Assembly (NCBI GenBank): GCA_005883245.1
Contig: VAXT01000091.1
Location: 1 to 28,451, forward strand
DNA length: 28,451 nucleotides
Direction: 5' to 3'
From: Actinomycetota bacterium
Lineage (GTDB): Bacteria; Actinomycetota; Thermoleophilia; Gaiellales; Gaiellaceae
Shown here: positions 6,824 through 28,318 of the stretch, piece after piece
How the letters are laid out: each line of letters begins with the position of its first letter
Numbering within the stretch: the stretch's first letter is position 1
Made by a program: the position numbers and the translations under genes
Notes under the pieces: model-generated
Database searches by the model: none
What the model saw: only the letters and a program-made list of their open reading frames with translations
Told to the model about the DNA's origin: nothing

Positions 6824-7015
6824 ATGAATGACTACGTGTGCGACCTCAGCGGCGCGCGACCGACCGCCGCCACGGTCGACTCCCTCGCGCGGCTCGCCCT
6901 CCTGCTCCGGCGCGAGGGCTCACGGCTCGTTCTCCGGCACGCCTCGCCCGAGATCGTCGAGCTGATCGCGTTCATGGGAATGAGCGACGTGCTACGAGTC
7001 GATCCGCGCGGGTAG
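6824..7015 (+). CDS. Small STAS-domain protein
   Basis: MNDYVCDLSGARPTAATVDSLARLALLLRREGSRLVLRHASPEIVELIAFMGMSDVL, a minimal STAS pattern; start 6824 is in frame with ORF 6773 and just after the promoter motif. Confidence 0.7.
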   Translation: MNDYVCDLSGARPTAATVDSLARLALLLRREGSRLVLRHASPEIVELIAFMGMSDVLRVDPRG

Positions 7016-7948
7016 ACCGAAGAGCGGGAACAGCGTCTCGGTCTCGAGGAAGAACGTGAGCTCGACGATCTTGCCGTCCTCGATCTCGAGCACCTGGAGC
7101 GCCCACGGGTCGTAGCCGCTGCCCGTCTCGCTCGGCTTGTACTGGCCGAACGCGGGCGCGCCGTTGGCGGACACCGTGGGGATCATCTTCGAGCCCTTGC
7201 AGCCGATGCCCGGGCCGTACCACCACGCAAAGATGTCGTCGCGGCCGCGCAGCCACATGTCGAACGGAGGCATCGACTGCGTCGCGTCCTCCTGGATCAG
7301 GGCCACGAGCGCGTCCATGTCGTACTGCTCGAACGCCTCGACGTAGCGCGCGAGGAGCTCGGCGTCGGCCTTGTCGACCGAGCGCGACGCGTCGGCCAGG
7401 TCGAGCTTGCTCTCCTCGAGCGTGGCCCGCGCCCTCTGGAGCGCGCTGTTCACCGACGCGACGCTCGTGTCGAGCAGCTCCGCGACCTCGCCTGCCTTCC
7501 AGCGCAGGACCTCGCAGAGGATCAGGACGGCGCGCTGGCGCGGCGGAAGGTGCTGGAGGGCGGCGACGAGCGCCAGCCGGATCGTCTCGTTCGACTCGGC
7601 AACGACTGCGGGGTCGGGGATCGGCTGCACCCAGGTCGCCTCCGGCAGCGAGTTCAAGCTCTCCTCGACCGGCTCGCGCGAGGGGCCGAGGTCCATCGGG
7701 CGGGCACGCCGCTCGCGCCCGCTCAGCATGTCGAGGCAGACGTTCGTCGCGATCTTGTAGAGCCACGAGCGGAGCTGCGCGCGCCCCTCGAAGCGGTCGA
7801 TGGCACGCCAGGCGCGGATGAACGTCTCCTGGACGGCGTCCTCCGCCTCGAACGGCGACGCGAGCATGCGGTAGCAGTGCGCGGTCAGCTCTCCGCGGTA
7901 CTGCTCGAACTGTGCCTCCAGCTCCTGGGCGGCGGGGCTCGTCTGCAC
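6992..7948 (-). CDS. ECF sigma-70 factor with C-terminal SnoaL-like extension (ECF56/SigG-like)
   Basis: Region 2 HCYRMLASPFEAEDAVQETFIRAW...RSWLYKIATNVCLD; region 4 LPPRQRAVLIL..VLRW...SVNSALQRAR; C-terminal YVEAFE.YD..ALV...DAT.SMPP extension. Confidence 0.9.
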   Translation of the reverse strand: MQTSPAAQELEAQFEQYRGELTAHCYRMLASPFEAEDAVQETFIRAWRAIDRFEGRAQLRSWLYKIATNVCLDMLSGRERRARPMDLGPSREPVEESLNSLPEATWVQPIPDPAVVAESNETIRLALVAALQHLPPRQRAVLILCEVLRWKAGEVAELLDTSVASVNSALQRARATLEESKLDLADASRSVDKADAELLARYVEAFEQYDMDALVALIQEDATQSMPPFDMWLRGRDDIFAWWYGPGIGCKGSKMIPTVSANGAPAFGQYKPSETGSGYDPWALQVLEIEDGKIVELTFFLETETLFPLFGLPARIDS

Positions 7949-8462: not shown

Positions 8463-9061
8463 TTACGGAGTCGTTCCGACCACGGCCGAATCCTGCTCCG
8501 GTTGCGGCACGACTCGGATGTACGGCTTCGGCGAGTCCCACTCGCCGAAGATCTCCTTCGCCTCGTCGTCCGAGACCGAGCCCGCGATGATCACGTCCTC
8601 GCCCTGCCGCCAGTTCACCGGCGTCGCCACCTTGTGGTTCGCGGTGAGCTGGAGCGAGTCGATCACGCGCAGCACCTCGTCGAAGTTACGGCCGGTCGTC
8701 ATCGGGTAGATGAGGATCAGCTTCACCTTCTTGTCCGGCCCGACGACGAAGACGTTCCGCACGGTCTGGTTGTCCTCGGATAGTTCGGCGCCTCGCCCTG
8801 CGTCTCTTCGATGTCCTTGGCCCAGCCCTTGTGGTCGCTCGTCGTGTCGACGGAGAGCCCGATGATCTTCACGTTCCGCCGTTCGAACTCGGGCTTGATC
8901 CGCGCCATGTAGCCGAGCTCGGTCGTGCAGACCGGAGTGAAGTCCTTCGGGTGCGAGAAGAGCACGGCCCAGCCGTCGCCGATCCAGTCGTGGAAGCGGA
9001 TGTGCCCTTCGGTCGTGTCCGCCTCGAAGTCCGGTGCCGTGTCGCCGATCTTCAGTGCCAT
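8463..9061 (-). pseudogene. 1-Cys peroxiredoxin (Prx6 type), frameshifted near 8776-8780
   Basis: N-terminal half (ORF 8723..9061) has [12 protein letters not shown]...QGEAPNYP. C-terminal half is in another frame (ORF 8463..9155): [37 protein letters not shown]...ATPVNW. The linker expected in Prx6 appears missing. May be an assembly artefact. Confidence 0.8.
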
Positions 9062-9403: not shown

Positions 9404-10633
9404 ATGGCCGATGTGAGCGACGCCGGCGCACATCCAGGCGAAGCGGCGGAGCTCCAGCGCGAGCGCGATCGCGCCGAGGAACGCGAAGCCGCCGTTCGGG
9501 ACGTCGTCCAGACGATCGCGCGCACGACCTTCGACCTCGATGCGGTCCTGCAGACCGTGATCGACCGGGCGGTCCGACTCTGCCACGCGGACACCGGCAA
9601 CATCGCCCGCCGCGACGGCGACAAGGACGAGTACCGGATCGCGGCCTTCACGAGCATGACCCCCGAGTACGAGCGTCTTGTTCGAGAGCGCTTGTACAAG
9701 CCCGAGCGCGGGTCGATCGTCGGCCGGACGCTGCTCGAGAAGCGGATCGTGCACATCGGCGACGTGCTCGAGGATCCGCAATACGCCCTACCCGACCTGC
9801 AGAGGCTCGCGGGCTACCGCACCGCGCTCGGGGTCCCGATGATGCGGGAAGGCGTGCCGATCGGCGCGATCGCGGTCGCCCGCAACCAGGTGCGGCCGTT
9901 CGACGCCATGGAGATCAGGCTGATCGAGACGTTCGCCGACTTCGCGGTGATCGCGATCGAGAACGTCCGTCTCTTCCAGACTGTTGAGCGCCAGCGCACC
10001 GAGTTGGCGCAGTTCGCACCACACGTCGCGAACCTGCTCTCGACCGGAGACGGAGAGCAGCTCCTCGCCGGTCACCGCCGCGAGATCACCGCGCTCTTTT
10101 GCGATCTGCGCGGCTTCACGTCCTTCTCGGAGACCGCCGAGCCCGAGGAGGTCTTCAGCATCCTGCGCGAGTACCACACCGCAGCCGGCGAGGTCGTCTC
10201 GGCGAACGAAGGCACCATCGAGCACTTCGCAGGAGACGGGCTGATGGCGTTCTTCAATGATCCGGTCGAGATCGACGATCACGAGCTCGCGGCCGTGCGC
10301 ACCGCTGCGACGCTGGCCGAGCGCTTCACGACCCTCGCCGCGGACTGGCGCAAGCGTGGCTACGACCTCGGCCTCGGCATCGGGATCGCGACCGGCTACG
10401 CGACGCTCGGGCGGATCGGGTTCGAAGGACGCTACGAGTACGGCGCGATCGGCAATGCGGTCATTCTTGCCTCACGGCTGAGCGACGCAGCCGCGCCCGG
10501 CGAGATCCTGCTCAGCCAGCGTACCGACGCTTCGCTCGAGGGGCGAATCGCGACCGATCCCGTTCCCGTGCTGCGGCTCAAGGGCTTCACGCGGCCCGTC
10601 GTCGCGATGCGCCTGGTCGAGCTCTCCGGCTGA
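9404..10633 (+). CDS. GAF domain + class III adenylate/guanylate cyclase domain protein
   Basis: GAF (FDLDAVLQTV...GSIVGR..LEKRIVHIGDV..DP.Y...RT.LGVPM); cyclase LFCDLRGFT, FAGDGLM, GIGIATG, LASRL, LKGF. Confidence 0.88.
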   Translation: MADVSDAGAHPGEAAELQRERDRAEEREAAVRDVVQTIARTTFDLDAVLQTVIDRAVRLCHADTGNIARRDGDKDEYRIAAFTSMTPEYERLVRERLYKPERGSIVGRTLLEKRIVHIGDVLEDPQYALPDLQRLAGYRTALGVPMMREGVPIGAIAVARNQVRPFDAMEIRLIETFADFAVIAIENVRLFQTVERQRTELAQFAPHVANLLSTGDGEQLLAGHRREITALFCDLRGFTSFSETAEPEEVFSILREYHTAAGEVVSANEGTIEHFAGDGLMAFFNDPVEIDDHELAAVRTAATLAERFTTLAADWRKRGYDLGLGIGIATGYATLGRIGFEGRYEYGAIGNAVILASRLSDAAAPGEILLSQRTDASLEGRIATDPVPVLRLKGFTRPVVAMRLVELSG

Positions 10634-13237: not shown

Positions 13238-13681
13238 CTACCGCTTAGTCGGCCCGGCGATCGCGTCCGAGGCGCGGAAGCGCTCGCCCAGGATGCGCCC
13301 GAGGTCGAGCACGAAGCGCAGCGCGAGCCGCGGTTGCATCAGACGCAGCCGCTGGAACGCCCCCTGCGTGAGAACGAGCGCCTCGGCCTCCTCGAGCGCG
13401 ACGACGTCCGCCGACCGTGGTAGCCCGTCGAAGAAGCCGACCTCGCCGAAGAGGTCGCCCGGCTCGAGCACGCGGACGCGCTTCGCCCCTTCGTCGCTCG
13501 GCACGAGCACCTCGAACGAGCCGCGCGAGATGACGAAGAAGCTGCGGTCGAGCTCGCCTGTGCGAACCGCAAACTCACCCGGGGCGTAGATGCGTGCCTG
13601 CGTGTACTCGAGCACGACCGTGAGGTCGGCCTCGTGCAGGTCGGCGAGGAAACCCCGGTGCTCGCCGTTCGACTCGCTCAT
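13238..13681 (-). CDS. Stand-alone cyclic-nucleotide-binding domain protein
   Basis: ATG 13681 overlaps the globin TGA (ATGA). YAPGE...G...FFVISRGSFEV...PGDLFGEVGFFDGLPRSADV; no C-terminal HTH. Confidence 0.85.
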   Translation of the reverse strand: MSESNGEHRGFLADLHEADLTVVLEYTQARIYAPGEFAVRTGELDRSFFVISRGSFEVLVPSDEGAKRVRVLEPGDLFGEVGFFDGLPRSADVVALEEAEALVLTQGAFQRLRLMQPRLALRFVLDLGRILGERFRASDAIAGPTKR

Positions 13682-14094
13682 CCAGCCCCAGTCGCAGCCC
13701 CTTGCAGCATCACGTCCTGCACCACGACGAAGGCCTCCTGCCACGCGGTCGTGTACTCCGGCTTCCATTGGTCACCCGCGATCTCGGCCATCGAGCCGAT
13801 CAGGACCTCGCCGACGACCGGGTAGTGCTCCGGTTGCGCCCCGTACTGGACGTGGCGGGAACCGAGATCCTGCAGGTCGGGGACGATGTCGTCCAGGTCG
13901 CGCAGCGACTCCCGCAAGACGACGAGCATGTTCAGCAAGGCCTCCCGCTGTCGCTCCATGTCGACGTCGGCGAACAGCGGCTGGACGGCCGGCGCCGTCT
14001 CGAACAGGCGGTCGTAGAACGTCTTCATCAGCTCGTCGCCGCGCGGAGCGACGAGGTCGAAGCTTTCCTCGAGGGTCTCTACGTCAACAGACAT
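13678..14094 (-). CDS. Single-domain 3/3 globin (flavohaemoglobin/Vgb lineage)
   Basis: FY (B9-B10), P..QPLF (CD1), RQ (E7), LG.RH (F8 His), GAQPEHY (G5), AW in helix H; GGGGAG RBS upstream. Confidence 0.92.
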   Translation of the reverse strand: MSVDVETLEESFDLVAPRGDELMKTFYDRLFETAPAVQPLFADVDMERQREALLNMLVVLRESLRDLDDIVPDLQDLGSRHVQYGAQPEHYPVVGEVLIGSMAEIAGDQWKPEYTTAWQEAFVVVQDVMLQGAATGAG

Positions 14095-14124
14095 AGCGGC
14101 AGCTCCCCTGACTCGTGGACACCC

Positions 14125-15774
14125 CTACCCCGCGAGTGTCGCACCCCCCACCAGGCGAGACAAGGCCTGCCACTTGCCGTGCTCGAACGCATCGAGATCG
14201 GAGCTGAGGTCGATTCCCTGCTCGACGCCGGCGGTGACGTCGTCGAACAGCTCGGGGTCGCCGAGGATGATCGCGCCGGCGAGCCGGCCGTCGTCCAGCA
14301 CGAGCTTCCGGTAGCGGCGCGTGCCGTACGCGCTGACGAGGACCGTCCTCGAGTCCTCGCCGCTCGCCTCGACCGCGCCGATCGAGAGCAGGTCGATGCC
14401 GGGCACCTTCAGCCGGGCGGGCTGTGCGAGGAGACTGAAGGCCGCTTCGCCGCCGACGATGCTGGTCGCGGCGACCTGTGCCTGCTCCACGCTCGCCGGC
14501 CAGAGCCCGTAACGCCGCCCCTGGTGGTCGACGACGTCGCCCACGGCGTAGATGTGCGGGTCCGAGGTCTGCATCGCGTCGTTGACGGTGACTCCGCCGG
14601 CTACCTCGAGCGCGGCAGCCTTGGCGAGCTCCGAGTTCGGGACGACTCCCGTCGCGGCGAGGCAGAGCTCGGCGTCGATCGTCCCCCCGTCGACCAGCTC
14701 GACGCCCGTCACAAGCTCGTCGGCGACGATCCGCTCCGCCTCGATCAGCGGCAGGAGCTCGATGCCGAGGTCGTGGAGCATCTCCCAGAGCAGCGCGCCC
14801 GCCTGCTCGTCGAGCTGCCGGCTGAGTGGCCACGGGCTGCGGTCGAGCATGACAACCCGGAGGTCGAGCTGCGTCAGGTAGTACGCGGCCTCGAGCCCGA
14901 GCAGGCCGGCACCGACGATCACGACCGTCCGACAGCGGTGCCGCCGGACGTGCTGCTGGATCTGCACGGCGTCGTCGATCGTCCGCAGCACGAAGCTGCC
15001 CGCCGCGCCGAAGCCGTCGATCGGTGGGACGAGCGGAGCCGCCCCGGTCGCGATCACCACTCGGTCGTACGGGATGCGTTCCCGGTCGGCGAGGACCACG
15101 TCGCCGCTCTCGCGGTCGATCGCCGTGACGGGCAACCCGCGCCGGTAGTCGATCCTCCGTGACCCGGCCCAGTCACGCCGGTTCAGGTAGAGGCTCTCGA
15201 TCGACACGGACTCGGAGACGAGCCTCGTGATCCCCATCCGGTTGTAGAAGGCATACGGCTCGTCGCCGATCAGGGTCAGCTCCGCGTCGGGCAGCACGCG
15301 GCGAAGCTCCTCGGCTGCGGTCACGCCCGCGACACCCGCTCCGATGACGACGACTCGTCCGATCTCGGTCTTGAGCTCGGGGACAACGGCGACGGCCCGG
15401 GTCGGCTCCTCGCTCGGTTCCTCGGGGGCCGGATGCGGATCGACGACGACCGGGCCTTCGACGCGCGACACGCATGCCATCCGGCAGCCCGCCCCCAGCC
15501 CTAGACGCTCCAGGGTGCGACGCTCGGCCGAGCGCATGGCCGAGAGGTTCTCCTCGCCCTCGATGATGCGGACGGGATCCGAGCCGCACATGCCCATGCG
15601 GCAGCCGTGCTCGATCGGCACCTGGCTCGCCTCGGCGATGTCCAGCAGTTTGTCGCCCTTCTTAGCTCGCACCGTCGGGCCATTCGTGAAGGCGACCGAG
15701 ACCTCGCCCGCATGGACGGCTTCCGCGACGCGCAGGAGCTCGTCGGCCGGATGCGCTGGCGTGGGCTCGGTCAC
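14125..15774 (-). CDS. [2Fe-2S] ferredoxin domain fused to a NAD(P)H/FAD-dependent pyridine nucleotide-disulphide oxidoreductase (rubredoxin/NirB-N-terminal type)
   Basis: N-terminal GCRMGMCGSD...RMAC; FAD motif IGAGVAG; YNR; NAD motif VGAGLLGLEAA; TSDPHIYAVGD; YRKLVL..GRLAGAIILGD. Confidence 0.85.
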   Translation of the reverse strand: MTEPTPAHPADELLRVAEAVHAGEVSVAFTNGPTVRAKKGDKLLDIAEASQVPIEHGCRMGMCGSDPVRIIEGEENLSAMRSAERRTLERLGLGAGCRMACVSRVEGPVVVDPHPAPEEPSEEPTRAVAVVPELKTEIGRVVVIGAGVAGVTAAEELRRVLPDAELTLIGDEPYAFYNRMGITRLVSESVSIESLYLNRRDWAGSRRIDYRRGLPVTAIDRESGDVVLADRERIPYDRVVIATGAAPLVPPIDGFGAAGSFVLRTIDDAVQIQQHVRRHRCRTVVIVGAGLLGLEAAYYLTQLDLRVVMLDRSPWPLSRQLDEQAGALLWEMLHDLGIELLPLIEAERIVADELVTGVELVDGGTIDAELCLAATGVVPNSELAKAAALEVAGGVTVNDAMQTSDPHIYAVGDVVDHQGRRYGLWPASVEQAQVAATSIVGGEAAFSLLAQPARLKVPGIDLLSIGAVEASGEDSRTVLVSAYGTRRYRKLVLDDGRLAGAIILGDPELFDDVTAGVEQGIDLSSDLDAFEHGKWQALSRLVGGATLAG

Positions 15775-15806
15775 GCACCGAGCCTAAAACGAGTTGGCGC
15801 GCCGGG

Positions 15807-16556
15807 CTAGTAACGGTGGCGCTCGATGAACTCGAGCATCCGGTTCCACGCGTCCGCGGACGCCTCCGCGAACGCTTCCTGGCTGCGGTCGAAGAAACTG
15901 TGCGGCGCGCCGGGATAGGTCACCACCTCGTGCTCGACGCCGGCCGCAGTCAGGGCCTCGTCGAACTCCGCGTTGTGCTCGGCGGTGATGTTCCTGTCGG
16001 CGCCGGCCTGAAGCGCGAGGATCGGCGCGGTCATCTCGGCCGCGCGCGTCGTCGGGCCGCGCGTGTCGCGATCGACCGTCGACCCGTAGAAGCCGACGGC
16101 CCCCTTCAGGTCGTGCCCGCTCGCCGCGGCCAGCCACGAGTTGCGCCCGCCGAAGCAGAAGCCGACCGTGAAGTTTGAGGTCACGCCCTGGTCGAGCAAC
16201 CACGCGATGACGGCGCTGAGGTCGGTCTGCACCTGGTCCGGCGTGCCCAGGCTCACGTGGTGCGGGTAGTCGAAGTCGTCGCCCCTCTTCCCCACTCCCG
16301 CCGTCCGCCCGAAGTAGTCGAAGGCGATCGCGGCGATTCCGCGCTCGGCGAAGCGCAGCGCCAGCTCCTCGTAGAAGCGGTAGAGCCCGCGCACATCGGG
16401 CAGGATCGCGACGCCGACGTCGGTCGGATCCTCTGGCAGCGCCGCGAAGGCCGCGAAGCGGTTGCCGTCCTCGCTTTGGAGCTCGAGGTCGCGGTGGTCG
16501 ACCGCGCCACCCTCGATCGGCGCAATCGGCGGCACAGCGTCGAGCTCGAAGCACAT
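15807..16556 (-). CDS. Dienelactone hydrolase family protein
   Basis: LPDVRGL, GFCFGG nucleophile elbow, GAD, YPGAPHSF. Confidence 0.9.
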   Translation of the reverse strand: MCFELDAVPPIAPIEGGAVDHRDLELQSEDGNRFAAFAALPEDPTDVGVAILPDVRGLYRFYEELALRFAERGIAAIAFDYFGRTAGVGKRGDDFDYPHHVSLGTPDQVQTDLSAVIAWLLDQGVTSNFTVGFCFGGRNSWLAAASGHDLKGAVGFYGSTVDRDTRGPTTRAAEMTAPILALQAGADRNITAEHNAEFDEALTAAGVEHEVVTYPGAPHSFFDRSQEAFAEASADAWNRMLEFIERHRY

Positions 16557-24593: not shown

Positions 24594-25913
24594 ATGCGCC
24601 TCCTGGACCGGACCCGAGCGGTGGTGGATCGGCTCGTCGCGTTCCTGGCGCTGGTTGGCGCGGACCCGCACGACGACGAGGACCTACGTGCTCGAAAGGC
24701 GCTGCTGGTCCTGATCTCGGTCTTGATCCTGCCGGTCGCTGCGCTCTGGGGCGCGCTGTATCTCGCGTTCGGATCCCCGGTCGGGGTGGTGCCGCTCGTC
24801 TACTTCGGCATCCTGCTCGGTGCGATCGCCGTGTTTTCGCGCACGCGCGACTTCCCGTGGCTGCTCCGGGTGGCCCAGATCGACATCCTGCTCGCGCCGA
24901 CGCTGTCGATGATCCCGCTCGGTGGGTTTCTCGACGCGGGCGGCGTCGGCCTGTGGGGGATTCTCGCCCCGCTCGGGGCGCTCGTGTTCAGCAACGTCAG
25001 GTCGGCGGCCCGCTGGTACGTCGCGTACGTCGTCGTGTTCCTCGGATCGGGAATCGTGGGCGAGATCATCGGCCCGGTCTGGGAGCCGCTACCCGTCTGG
25101 TTCACGAGCACGATGCTGGCGCTGAACATCGCGGTCGGCGGCACCATCGTGTTCACGCTGCTCGCGGTGTTCGCAGGCCAGCGCCGCGCTGCCCTCGCAG
25201 CGCTCCGGCTGGAGCAGGCGAAGGCCGAGAACCTCCTGCTCAACATCCTCCCGCGCTCGATCGCCGACCGGCTGAAGGCCCAGGCGCAACCGATCGCGGA
25301 TCAGTTCGGGTCGGCCTCGATCCTGTTCGCCGACGTCGTCGACTTCACACCCTGGTCGGAGCGTCTCCCGCCCGCCGAGGTGGTCGGCTACCTCGATCAC
25401 CTGTTCAGTCGCTTCGACGACCTCGCGGAACGCCACGGGCTCGAGAAGATCAAGACCATCGGCGATTGCTACATGGCCGCCGCGGGAGTCCCGACGCCGC
25501 GCCCCGACCACGCTCGCGCTCTCGCGCTCATGGCGCTCGACATGCTCGACGCGATGCGCTCGGACGACGAAGTCGGGCGCCTCGGCCTCGAGCTCCGGGT
25601 CGGCATCAACTCGGGCCCGGTGGTGGCGGGCGTGATCGGCCGAAAGCGCTTCCTCTACGACCTCTGGGGCGACGCCGTGAATACGGCCAGTCGCATGGAG
25701 TCCCACGGGACGCCGGGGCGAATCCAGATCACCGGGGCAACCTACGAGCTACTCGCGGACGAGTTCGAGTGCGTGCCTCGGGGGACGATCACCGTGAAGG
25801 GAAAGGGCGAGGTCGAGACGTGGTACCTCGTCGGTCGACGGGGCGATGGCGCGTCGGCCGCCGACGAGGCACGCGAGCACACGCTCGCCGAACGAGGGCT
25901 CGAGTCCTCGTGA
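24594..25913 (+). CDS. Membrane-anchored class III adenylate cyclase (Rv1625c-like architecture)
   Basis: About six TM segments; ILFADVVDFT, EKIKTIGDCYM, YDLWGDAVNTASRMES, KGKG; all canonical adenylyl cyclase residues (D, D, K, D, N, R) present. Confidence 0.92.
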   Translation: MRLLDRTRAVVDRLVAFLALVGADPHDDEDLRARKALLVLISVLILPVAALWGALYLAFGSPVGVVPLVYFGILLGAIAVFSRTRDFPWLLRVAQIDILLAPTLSMIPLGGFLDAGGVGLWGILAPLGALVFSNVRSAARWYVAYVVVFLGSGIVGEIIGPVWEPLPVWFTSTMLALNIAVGGTIVFTLLAVFAGQRRAALAALRLEQAKAENLLLNILPRSIADRLKAQAQPIADQFGSASILFADVVDFTPWSERLPPAEVVGYLDHLFSRFDDLAERHGLEKIKTIGDCYMAAAGVPTPRPDHARALALMALDMLDAMRSDDEVGRLGLELRVGINSGPVVAGVIGRKRFLYDLWGDAVNTASRMESHGTPGRIQITGATYELLADEFECVPRGTITVKGKGEVETWYLVGRRGDGASAADEAREHTLAERGLESS

Positions 25914-27450: not shown

Positions 27451-27703
27451 TGGACTGTTGGCGGCTCGCTTGTTCTGACCCGCCCGTACTCGACTGCGCC
27501 GAAGGTTATGGACGCGAGCGTTTGGGAACATACCAGGGAACCGTCAAACCGACAGATCGTGCTTGATTGGAGTTCGCTAAAATCCATCGTTCCTCGTCGC
27601 TCAGAGCGCCGGAGTGAAGCTGCTGGTCACGCTGACGATGGCTGAAAATTCGAGGATCGAACAGCCTCCCGATGGGCCTGCGAACGCCCGGATCGTGCCG
27701 AGC

Positions 27704-28318
27704 ATGACCGAGGGCGAGCCGATGCATCTTCGTGTGCTGATTGCGAACGAGAAGCGCGATCGGCTCGAACTGCTCGCGCAGGTCGTAATCGGCCTCGGCC
27801 ATGACGTGATCGCTCGCGAGATCTACGTCAAGGAGGTTGGAGCCGCCACCGAGAGGGAGCGGCCGGATGTGGCCCTCGTCGGTCTCGGCCTTAGCTCGGA
27901 GCACGCCCTCGACCTGATCACGGAGATCGTCCGTGAAGCCGCGTGTCCCGTGATCGCGTTGCTGCACGCGAAGGATCCTGTCTACGTCCGGGAAGCGGCG
28001 AAGCGCGGCGTTTTCGCCTACATCGTGGACGGCGACGCTGCCGAGCTGCAGAGCGCAATCGACATCACGCTGCAGCGCTTCGCCGAATACCAGAGCCTCC
28101 AGGGCGCCTTCGGCCGGCGGGCGCTGATCGAGCAGGCGAAAGGCATCTTGATGGCGCGGCACGCGATCGATGCCGACGGCGCCTTCGACATGCTCCGGGA
28201 CCACTCGCAGCACAACGGCCGGAAGCTGGTCGACGTCGCGCAGGCGATCGTCGACAGCCATTTGCTGTTGCTAGTGCCGGCACAGGCCACGCCGGGAAGT
28301 CCCGAGCCGGCACAATAA
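27704..28318 (+). CDS. ANTAR-domain antitermination regulator with atypical receiver (AmiR/NasT-like)
   Basis: LRVLIANE...PDVALVG...CPVIAL...GVFAYIV receiver-like fold; RRALIEQAKGILMARH.....AFDMLRDHSQHNGRKLVDVAQAI ANTAR motif. Start is 27704 or 27722. Confidence 0.9.
   Translation: MTEGEPMHLRVLIANEKRDRLELLAQVVIGLGHDVIAREIYVKEVGAATERERPDVALVGLGLSSEHALDLITEIVREAACPVIALLHAKDPVYVREAAKRGVFAYIVDGDAAELQSAIDITLQRFAEYQSLQGAFGRRALIEQAKGILMARHAIDADGAFDMLRDHSQHNGRKLVDVAQAIVDSHLLLLVPAQATPGSPEPAQ

Follow-up and report, generated by a model that had tools for sequence, protein, structure and literature searches.

Which protein reduces a single-domain bacterial globin, and why should such a globin be encoded together with a cyclic-nucleotide-binding protein? 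These questions are raised by three genes in contig VAXT01000091.1 (assembly GCA_005883245.1) of a soil-dwelling Actinomycetota bacterium of the Gaiellaceae family. The stretch from position 1 to 28,451 of this contig is called the window here; its G+C content is about 70%, and its relatives are metagenome-assembled genomes (MAGs) of Gaiellaceae/Thermoleophilia. The three genes are co-oriented on the minus strand. In this order, they encode an NAD(P)H-FAD-[2Fe-2S] reductase (RED; 14125..15774, GTG start, 549 residues), a single-domain globin of the M/F lineage, that is, flavohaemoglobin-like (GLB; 13678..14094, 138 residues), and a stand-alone cyclic-nucleotide-binding protein (CNB; 13238..13681, 147 residues). 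RED and GLB were assigned with Pfam and NCBIfam, and CNB with Pfam and a complex prediction. For VHb, Cgb, and most other bacterial globins with a single domain, the physiological reductase is not known or is disputed. The initial annotation, made from the nucleotide sequence alone, read the three genes as a split flavohaemoglobin-like module. In summary, I consider it somewhat probable that they specify a soluble three-protein redox module with an NAD(P)H-FAD-[2Fe-2S]-haem chain, in which CNB regulates RED, the globin has taken the place of a membrane acceptor, and the haem serves nitric oxide (NO)-type chemistry.

Is the triad conserved? It was found that the three genes stand together at 11 loci besides the window, in Gaiellaceae/Thermoleophilia and Chloroflexia MAGs and in one metagenome, with protein identities of 49-83%. 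A single-protein scan found the order RED-GLB-CNB in six MAG loci and one cut locus, at 62-83% identity. The metagenomic contig has the order GLB-CNB-RED; its GLB, CNB, and RED are 60%, 57%, and 49% identical to the window proteins, respectively, and the stop codon of its CNB gene overlaps with the start codon of its RED gene. A RED profile scan added two Chloroflexia MAGs, one for each gene order, and another Gaiellaceae MAG. Since the triad occurs in two gene orders, its linkage is functional. The genes flanking the triad in the window were not found beside it elsewhere, except for a short FtsX-like tail in one locus (L003). Thus, the gene neighborhoods bear out the triad as a conserved functional unit.

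Does the reductase also occur without a globin? I tallied the RED family with my own hidden Markov model searches, taking 80 loci from the profile scan plus one further locus (L047). In 68 loci, the protein is about 890 residues long and has the Fer2-FAD-Rubredoxin_C part of RED at its C-terminal end, while 13 loci lack the N-terminal domain of about 350 residues, which is called X here. X belongs to no Pfam family and has six or more predicted membrane helices. The motifs W-R-N-x-C-P, G-K-S-G-W-C-x3-C-P, and C-x2-C-x2-C-x3-C are invariant in X. Its structural model is a bundle of long helices (predicted local distance difference test score, pLDDT, 91) that weakly resembles NapH-type/polyferredoxin membrane proteins. 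Its fold neighbors in the AlphaFold DB include entries named cyclic nucleotide-binding proteins. The X-fused family spans Actinomycetota, Chloroflexota, and Pseudomonadota, and its hosts include Solirubrobacterales, Chloroflexota, Rubrobacteraceae, Streptomyces, Nocardia, Mycobacterium, Nocardioides, Coxiellaceae, Burkholderiaceae, and others.

It was revealed that X and the globin have a complementary distribution. No globin lies near any of the 68 X-fused loci. The 13 X-less loci comprise 10 complete triads, one locus cut by the contig end, and two truncated remnants; a globin and a CNB are present in all 10 complete X-less loci, as in the window. Since the globin is present in every intact X-less locus and absent from the X-fused ones, it appears to fill the acceptor slot. 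A CNB homolog lies immediately upstream in 44 of the 68 X-fused loci, or 44 of the 60 loci with enough upstream sequence, and it overlaps with the start of the reductase gene by 1 or 4 nucleotides in 21 of these 44. The Fer2-FAD-Rubredoxin_C part of the X-fused proteins is 37-53% identical to that of the window and has the same Cys-Cys-Asp-Cys ligands. The CNBs of these loci are 27-48% identical to the window CNB, with 43-48% in the two closest loci (L064 and L065). The X-fused proteins differ from the window RED, a soluble protein with a globin as its partner, in that they carry a membrane domain of about 350 residues with CX3CP and CxxCxxCxxxC motifs and have no globin. Examples of a CNB gene with an X-fused reductase gene are L101:2375-5608 (Paraconexibacter sp. 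AEG42_29), L108:2197-5527 (Streptomyces sp. WAC06614), L130:2361-5512 (Nocardioides sp. Root682), L090:1166-4244 (a Coxiellaceae MAG), and about 60 more loci.

When a tree was built from the reductase module, the REDs linked to a globin fell on one side of a branch with a support of 21, which neither shows nor rejects their grouping. They are nested in a clade with 100% support together with X-fused forms of Rubrobacteraceae, Chloroflexota, and Dormibacterota. The simplest history suggested by these sequences is that the CNB and the reductase make up an old and widespread unit and that the globin is a lineage-specific acceptor that may have replaced the membrane Fe-S domain. The initial annotation had proposed the cyclic-nucleotide-binding protein as the third subunit of the module. 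Subunit status agrees with the complex prediction described below, but the old partnership is that of CNB with the reductase, not with the globin. Two truncated RED remnants were found in Actinomycetota MAGs (L072:4001-5572, residues 8-373; L115:4001-4735, residues 8-247). The L072 remnant is directly followed by a CNB gene without a globin gene and has a cyclase-AAA_16 gene upstream. These two loci look like decayed or rearranged triads.

What kind of reductase is RED? [quoted passage not shown] The core has GxGxxG motifs at residues 145-150 and 288-293, whose glycines are invariant in the family alignment, and the FAD domain has no redox-active Cys pair. The AlphaFold model of RED (pLDDT 87.6; predicted template modeling score 0.84) has a flavoprotein fold nearest to those of putidaredoxin reductase (PdR), BphA4, and TodA (Foldseek, template modeling score by target 0.87-0.91), and the sequence matches 1q1r (1.8e-38). 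Thus, RED has the characters of this ferredoxin-reductase group: a glutathione-reductase fold, a C-terminal domain, and no redox-active disulfide. The best NCBIfam model is the N-terminal part of NirB (TIGR02374; model positions 1-394 of 794), at 294.7 bits against a cut-off of 578, and RED has no sirohaem or nitrite-reductase domain. An FNR domain is also absent from RED. These results support the view that in RED a [2Fe-2S] ferredoxin and a ferredoxin-reductase-type flavoprotein are naturally fused, and they agree with the initial annotation, which had called it a pyridine nucleotide-disulphide flavoprotein fused to a ferredoxin. An Asp or Glu at position 311 suggests a preference for NADH. 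RED homologs are abundant in soil metagenomes, with at least 120 at 72% identity or more among the matches listed.

In RED, the candidate cluster ligands Cys58, Cys63, Asp66, and Cys101, whose codons lie between 15603 and 15472, are invariant in 52 family members, while Cys97 is replaced by Thr in one locus (L046). The resulting motif, C58-X4-C63-X2-D66...C101, deviates from the four-Cys Fer2 motif CX4-5CX2C...C, while the Fer2 fold is matched. Thus, the Fer2 domain is a candidate for a [2Fe-2S] cluster held by three Cys residues and one Asp residue. E. coli SdhB is a precedent for Asp as a cluster ligand. This invariant Cys3-Asp1 ferredoxin motif may be a case for studying cluster tuning. The net charge of the Fer2 domain is -2 to +6 in the globin-linked REDs, as compared with a median of -4 in the X-fused proteins, and the net charge of GLB is -17. 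The lower acidity of Fer2 opposite the acidic GLB is in the expected direction; the loci are not phylogenetically independent, and this is weak evidence.

Does CNB bind RED? CNB matches the Pfam cNMP_binding family (2.3e-18, over its 147 residues), and neither Pfam nor NCBIfam found a helix-turn-helix (HTH) or enzyme domain in it. It lies outside the CRP/FNR family, having the cNMP_binding domain only and scoring 34 bits with the CRP model against a cut-off of 266. The phosphate-binding cassette, Gly79-Glu80 ... Arg89-Ser90-Ala91 (13409..13447), is conserved family-wide and fits the G-E ... R-[ST]-A cassette of functional cyclic nucleotide monophosphate (cNMP) domains: among 52 family members, G79 never varies, and the conservation of E80 and R89 is 90% or more. 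The RED-CNB complex was predicted with my own family alignments (52 rows per chain) and with three controls. The interaction prediction score from aligned errors (ipSAE) was 0.83, 0.84, and 0.82 for RED and CNB, while the best of the three controls gave 0.00. Of 80 solved complexes, 58 attain the mark for this score, as do 2 of 110 mismatched pairs; this benchmark is only roughly valid here since own alignments were used. The predicted interface comprises residues 8-37 and 49-51 (the N-terminal helix and Fer2), 332-336, 458-461, 484-487, and 505 of RED, and residues 9-33, 45-52, 74-76, and 102-118 of CNB. The segment 102-118 of CNB is C-terminal of the phosphate-binding cassette. In other cNMP domains, the segment after the cassette forms the hinge and the lid, which move upon ligand binding. 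The predicted structure thus supports a role of CNB as a regulatory subunit that may clamp or release the ferredoxin domain of RED.

Is GLB suited to the acceptor role? GLB is a stand-alone 3-on-3 globin that matches Pfam Globin (PF00042; 2.4e-14, 54.3 bits, cut-off 22) rather than Protoglobin (19.2 bits, under the cut-off of 25) or Bac_globin, as is characteristic of single-domain globins of the M/F lineage. It matches the globin part of the NCBIfam Hmp model (NF009805) with 1.7e-22 and 79.9 bits against a cut-off of 432. With 138 residues and no FNR domain it is not a flavohaemoglobin, and as a single-domain protein without a fused transmitter it is not a globin-coupled sensor. Among PDB sequences it matches HGbRL (3.6e-22), HGbI (1e-20), and VHb (5e-17), and also FHP, Hmp, Cgb, and thermoglobin. 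Alignment to VHb placed Tyr27 at B10, Phe41 at CD1, Gln49 at E7, Ala52 at E10, Leu53 at E11, His81 at F8, and Tyr91 at G5, in agreement with the four residues (TyrB10, GlnE7, HisF8, and TyrG5) named in the initial annotation. Thus, GLB has the pocket set of flavohaemoglobins and VHb (Tyr-B10, Gln-E7, Leu-E11, His-F8, and Tyr-G5). The pocket residues are kept in all triad orthologs; E10 is Ala or Ser in triad globins, as in VHb. Among 15 non-triad relatives compared, E10 is Lys in 9 and Met, Arg, or Ala in the rest. A Lys at this position (Lys52) closes the haem in HGbRL (PMC4476040). The genome encodes one truncated haemoglobin, and a globin of flavohaemoglobin length was not found in it.

Are the three genes expressed as an operon? 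A -10-like hexamer, TAGGCT (15781..15786, minus strand), lies 6 nucleotides 5′ of the GTG start codon of RED and is a candidate leaderless promoter. The 30-nucleotide gap between RED and GLB contains a Shine-Dalgarno-like sequence, AGGGGAG (14103..14109, minus strand), 8 nucleotides 5′ of the ATG start codon of GLB. The stop codon of GLB and the start codon of CNB overlap in an ATGA (13678..13681, minus strand), as expected for translational coupling. These signals, read from the nucleotide sequence, are present where the initial annotation had seen them. The RED start has no Shine-Dalgarno sequence upstream, in the window as well as in all 8 orthologous loci examined. A TAnnnT hexamer lies 6-9 nucleotides before the RED start in 8 of 8 orthologous loci despite unrelated upstream genes; by my rough estimate, about 1% per locus is expected by chance at 70% G+C. 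The gaps between RED and GLB are purine-rich and Shine-Dalgarno-like in 5 (L002-L006) of the 6 loci checked, and the 4-nucleotide overlap of GLB and CNB is kept in 5 of the 6 loci checked. Since the hexamer recurs in all 8 loci with differing upstream genes, the intergenic signals are more than chance. A scan for sigma-70 consensus promoters and terminators gave no match. Thus, a leaderless, translationally coupled operon with a predicted start site is a reasonable reading.

Contigs from soil RNA libraries were identical to the window at 13726-13991 (GLB), 13451-13720 (the GLB/CNB junction), and 13448-13673 (CNB), and another differed from it by one base at 14608-14783 (RED). One contig spans the GLB/CNB junction, and none spans the RED/GLB junction. 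These matches are consistent with expression of the operon. The dienelactone hydrolase gene (15807-16556), separated from RED by an upstream gap of 32 nucleotides, was considered as a fourth member of the operon and rejected: no other triad locus has this gene, and the conserved -10-like element sits inside this gap.

How might the module work? From these findings I infer electron transfer from RED to GLB, gating by cNMP, and NO chemistry. RED would take electrons from NAD(P)H, probably NADH, and pass them via FAD to its own N-terminal [2Fe-2S] cluster. The [2Fe-2S] domain would then deliver them singly to the haem of GLB, much as the chain of PdR and putidaredoxin (Pdx) feeds P450cam. This path is the best-supported inference because of the fold of RED, the strict linkage, and the complementary distribution of X and the globin. 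[quoted passage not shown] When CNB binds cAMP or cGMP, its hinge and lid, located in the interface with RED, would move, and electron delivery might thereby be gated. The haem would most likely carry out O2-dependent NO dioxygenation, or a related redox turnover of small ligands, sustained by re-reduction of the ferric haem. NO dioxygenation is favored because the distal pocket (Tyr-B10, Gln-E7, and Ala-E10) is as in Hmp and because the genome has no flavohaemoglobin. The module may have originated from a CNB and a reductase in which a NapH-like membrane Fe-S domain was fused to Fer2-FAD, through loss of the membrane domain and recruitment of a globin. More tentatively, the CNBs of the whole family may be second-messenger subunits of undescribed, phylum-spanning NADH-FAD-[2Fe-2S] injectors, with cNMP switching the electron flow to a membrane Fe-S domain or to a haemoglobin.

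Several findings weigh against this redox module. Glu137 of VHb (Glu-H23) aligns to Ala133 of GLB and is Ala or Ser in the triad orthologs; thus, the proximal triad of His-F8, Tyr-G5, and Glu-H23 is incomplete. The initial annotation, which likened GLB to flavohaemoglobins and Vgb-like globins, did not mention this proximal difference. The nearest relatives of GLB (44-60% identity) are mostly fused to CheW, PAS-MCP, PAS, or dCache domains, with other fusions to TPR repeats, a protoglobin, or DUF3050, while close stand-alone relatives adjoin a LuxR-type response regulator, a GAF-PAS histidine kinase, or a GAF-ANTAR regulator. A paralog in the same genome (contig C74:7515-7982, minus strand; locus L045) is 61% identical to GLB and adjoins a LuxR-type response regulator gene (L045:6357-7019), with no reductase or CNB nearby, and another relative, at 65% identity, sits beside a histidine kinase gene. 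Judged from these sequences, the GLB clade looks sensor-rich. Neither narG nor nirK was above the cut-off in the 78%-complete genome, and an internal NO source is not evident. In the window, no NO-responsive regulator and no nitrogen-oxide gene, including nas and nar, was found. For the proposed NO detoxification, therefore, the Hmp-like distal pocket speaks in favor, while the signaling-fused relatives, the missing Glu-H23, and the lack of narG and nirK above the cut-off speak against. The RNA-library contigs could stem from contaminating DNA. Finally, the module is missing from three genomes of the same genus and from almost all of 400 Thermoleophilia genomes sampled, and is accessory for this reason. 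In these 400 genomes, the RED search gave only NirB-like and other Pyr_redox_2 proteins with no globin or CNB near. The sample did not take in the triad-bearing species, which were recovered by the related-locus searches.

The main rival explanation is a haem-based gas or redox sensor, in which the state of GLB (O2, NO, CO, or NADH-linked redox) is passed to RED-CNB or integrated with cAMP, and RED only keeps the haem ferrous. The signaling domains and genes joined to the closest relatives of GLB agree with this, as does the best solved match, the putative sensor HGbRL (PMC4476040); CNB is itself a signaling domain, and class III cyclases are plentiful in the genome. Yet no output domain (HTH, kinase, cyclase, or MCP) occurs in the triad proteins or as a conserved neighbor, the Lys at E10 that is retained by most sensor-fused relatives compared has been lost in the triad globins, and a strictly linked 549-residue reductase together with the exact replacement of X by a globin fits an acceptor role better. 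I therefore regard a sensor as rather unlikely, but as an explanation to be taken seriously. Might RED-CNB instead be an enzyme acting on another acceptor (O2, quinone, nitrite/hydroxylamine, or a metal), with the globin serving as a VHb-like O2 buffer or delivery protein or as a scavenger of peroxide and reactive oxygen species? O2 delivery by VHb-type proteins is an established idea for single-domain globins, the RED family functions without a globin in 68 loci, and NirB is the best NCBIfam match. These same 68 loci, however, have a fused membrane Fe-S acceptor, with a globin appearing when X is missing, and the NirB match falls far short of its cut-off in a protein without the sirohaem and nitrite-reductase domains; this explanation is improbable. 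The idea that three unrelated genes are packed together by chance draws on the non-conserved flanking genes and the close relatives without the module. It is effectively refuted by the comparative data, namely the recurrence of the three families, with their overlaps conserved, at 11 more loci that cover two phyla and both gene orders, and by a RED-CNB complex predicted with clean controls. Thus, the redox module remains the reading that I prefer.

Does the module resemble known systems? PdR, BphA4, and TodA are ferredoxin reductases that use NADH; a [2Fe-2S] ferredoxin carries their electrons to haem or Rieske oxygenases. The PdR-Pdx (P450cam), BphA4-BphA3, and TodA-TodB systems resemble the module in that electrons pass from NADH through FAD and [2Fe-2S] and reach a haem or iron protein one by one, but the ferredoxin of RED is fused N-terminally, has CX4CX2D...C instead of four Cys residues, and is accompanied by a globin acceptor and a cNMP subunit. 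GLB shares Tyr-B10, Gln-E7, Ala-E10, Leu-E11, His-F8, and Tyr-G5 with Hmp/FHP and VHb, and an NAD(P)H-flavin-haem path is common to them. In Hmp, this path runs through a fused FNR-like module, whereas RED is a separate protein with a glutathione-reductase/ferredoxin-reductase fold and an extra [2Fe-2S] step. The Methylacidiphilum globins HGbRL and HGbI (3wfw and 3s1i) are the closest solved sequences to GLB and, like GLB, belong to the M/F lineage and have no helix D. HGbRL, a putative sensor, carries a fused Roadblock/LC7 domain (PMC4476040); it has Lys52 at E10, whereas GLB, with Ala at this position, is single-domain and comes with a reductase of its own.

A globin with a separate flavoprotein has precedents. 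In an operon of Bradyrhizobium, narK-bjgb-flp-nasC, a flavohaemoglobin-like single-domain globin, Bjgb, and a separate FAD/NAD(P)H flavoprotein, Flp, are transcribed together as a proposed NO-detoxifying pair; the only domains of Flp are those for FAD and NAD(P)H, it serves the nitrate reductase NasC as well, and the operon is part of nitrate assimilation and under NasS-NasT control (PMC4724949). The window likewise has a globin and a separate flavoprotein in one unit (30-nucleotide gap, conserved linkage), but, compared by description, Flp has neither a fused ferredoxin nor a cNMP partner, and the window has no nitrate-assimilation context. An Acinetobacter baumannii haemoglobin without an NADH-reductase domain shows NO dioxygenase activity via a separate NorW-type reductase (PMC11836069). 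As proposed here for GLB, it depends on a separate Pyr_redox_2-type flavoprotein, but its cognate reductase is neither genetically linked nor proven, and it has no ferredoxin domain and no cNMP protein. In the literature, no report was found of a globin joined with both a ferredoxin-reductase fusion and a cNMP-binding protein, and nothing was found on Gaiella and globins. Thus, the triad varies the split globin/reductase theme and is new in its cNMP subunit and its fused ferredoxin, for neither of which a report was found. The initial annotation, which did not recognize the combination as a described system, was right for these two components, while the pairing of a globin with a separate flavoprotein was already known (PMC4724949, PMC11836069).

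The operon points to a cognate globin reductase that is soluble, conserved, and encoded in the same operon, so that re-reduction of the haem could be reconstituted directly, and it offers a natural system for studying the reduction and regulation of single-domain bacterial globins. The occurrence of CNB with the same reductase module in dozens of genomes of several phyla suggests control by cAMP or cGMP of electron transfer rather than of transcription. The exchange of a membrane Fe-S acceptor for a globin would be a case of modular redox-chain evolution, and attention is drawn to a large uncharacterized family of membrane flavo-iron-sulfur proteins. If cNMP does switch the electron flow in this family, the operon would be the first soluble and tractable case of cNMP-gated electron transfer and of a genetically defined cognate reductase for a single-domain globin.

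Where could the ligand of CNB come from? The window contains two class III nucleotidyl cyclase genes on the plus strand, at 9404-10633 (GAF-linked) and 24594-25913, and about ten cyclase-like tblastn matches were found across the genome. It is plausible that these cyclases are the source of the CNB ligand. The GAF-adenylate cyclase gene at 9404-10633, 2.6 kb away, was rejected as a part of the module, as it is not conserved beside the triad elsewhere. Cyclase-AAA_16 genes flank four loci of the RED family. A search for conserved neighbors of the RED family gave mainly antisense shadow open reading frames (ORFs), a PASTA Ser/Thr kinase whose orientation varies (13 loci), and, at 7 loci, an FG-GAP protein; none of these is convincing as a module partner.

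The wider GLB family is diverse. An exhaustive search of 1.84 billion representatives gave 108 clusters below 1e-30, and a phylum-wide search gave mostly Hmp-length proteins of 24-45% identity, which are little informative on the GLB clade. CheW-globin fusions are recurrent (P0186, P0163, P0227, and P0201) and have globins of the M/F lineage, not of the protoglobin type. Globin-PAS-MCP (P0241 and L007:4968-7067), DUF3050-globin (P0243), and protoglobin-globin (P0214) fusions, likewise with M/F-lineage globins, were also found. The giant tandem-globin proteins P0124 (2461 residues), P0125 (2352 residues), P0126 (1842 residues), and P0138 (3690 residues) have 7 to 14 globin domains that are 26-37% identical to GLB. 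In a metagenomic locus (L051:1345-5758), the gene of a 53%-identical stand-alone globin is followed by those of a 781-residue Fer4/Pyr_redox_2 protein and a second Pyr_redox_2 protein. Here a globin may have been paired with flavoprotein reductases a further time and independently.

Three other genes of the window were noted. An ORF at 8723-9061 (minus strand) encodes a 112-residue AhpC/TSA-type peroxiredoxin that covers model positions 1-81 of 124, and it may be truncated or have a miscalled start or stop codon. The gene at 6992-7948 (minus strand) encodes an ECF sigma factor whose C-terminal domain is of the SnoaL_2 family. The gene at 27614-28318 (plus strand) encodes an ANTAR response regulator with a NasT-like architecture, with no nitrate-assimilation genes seen nearby.

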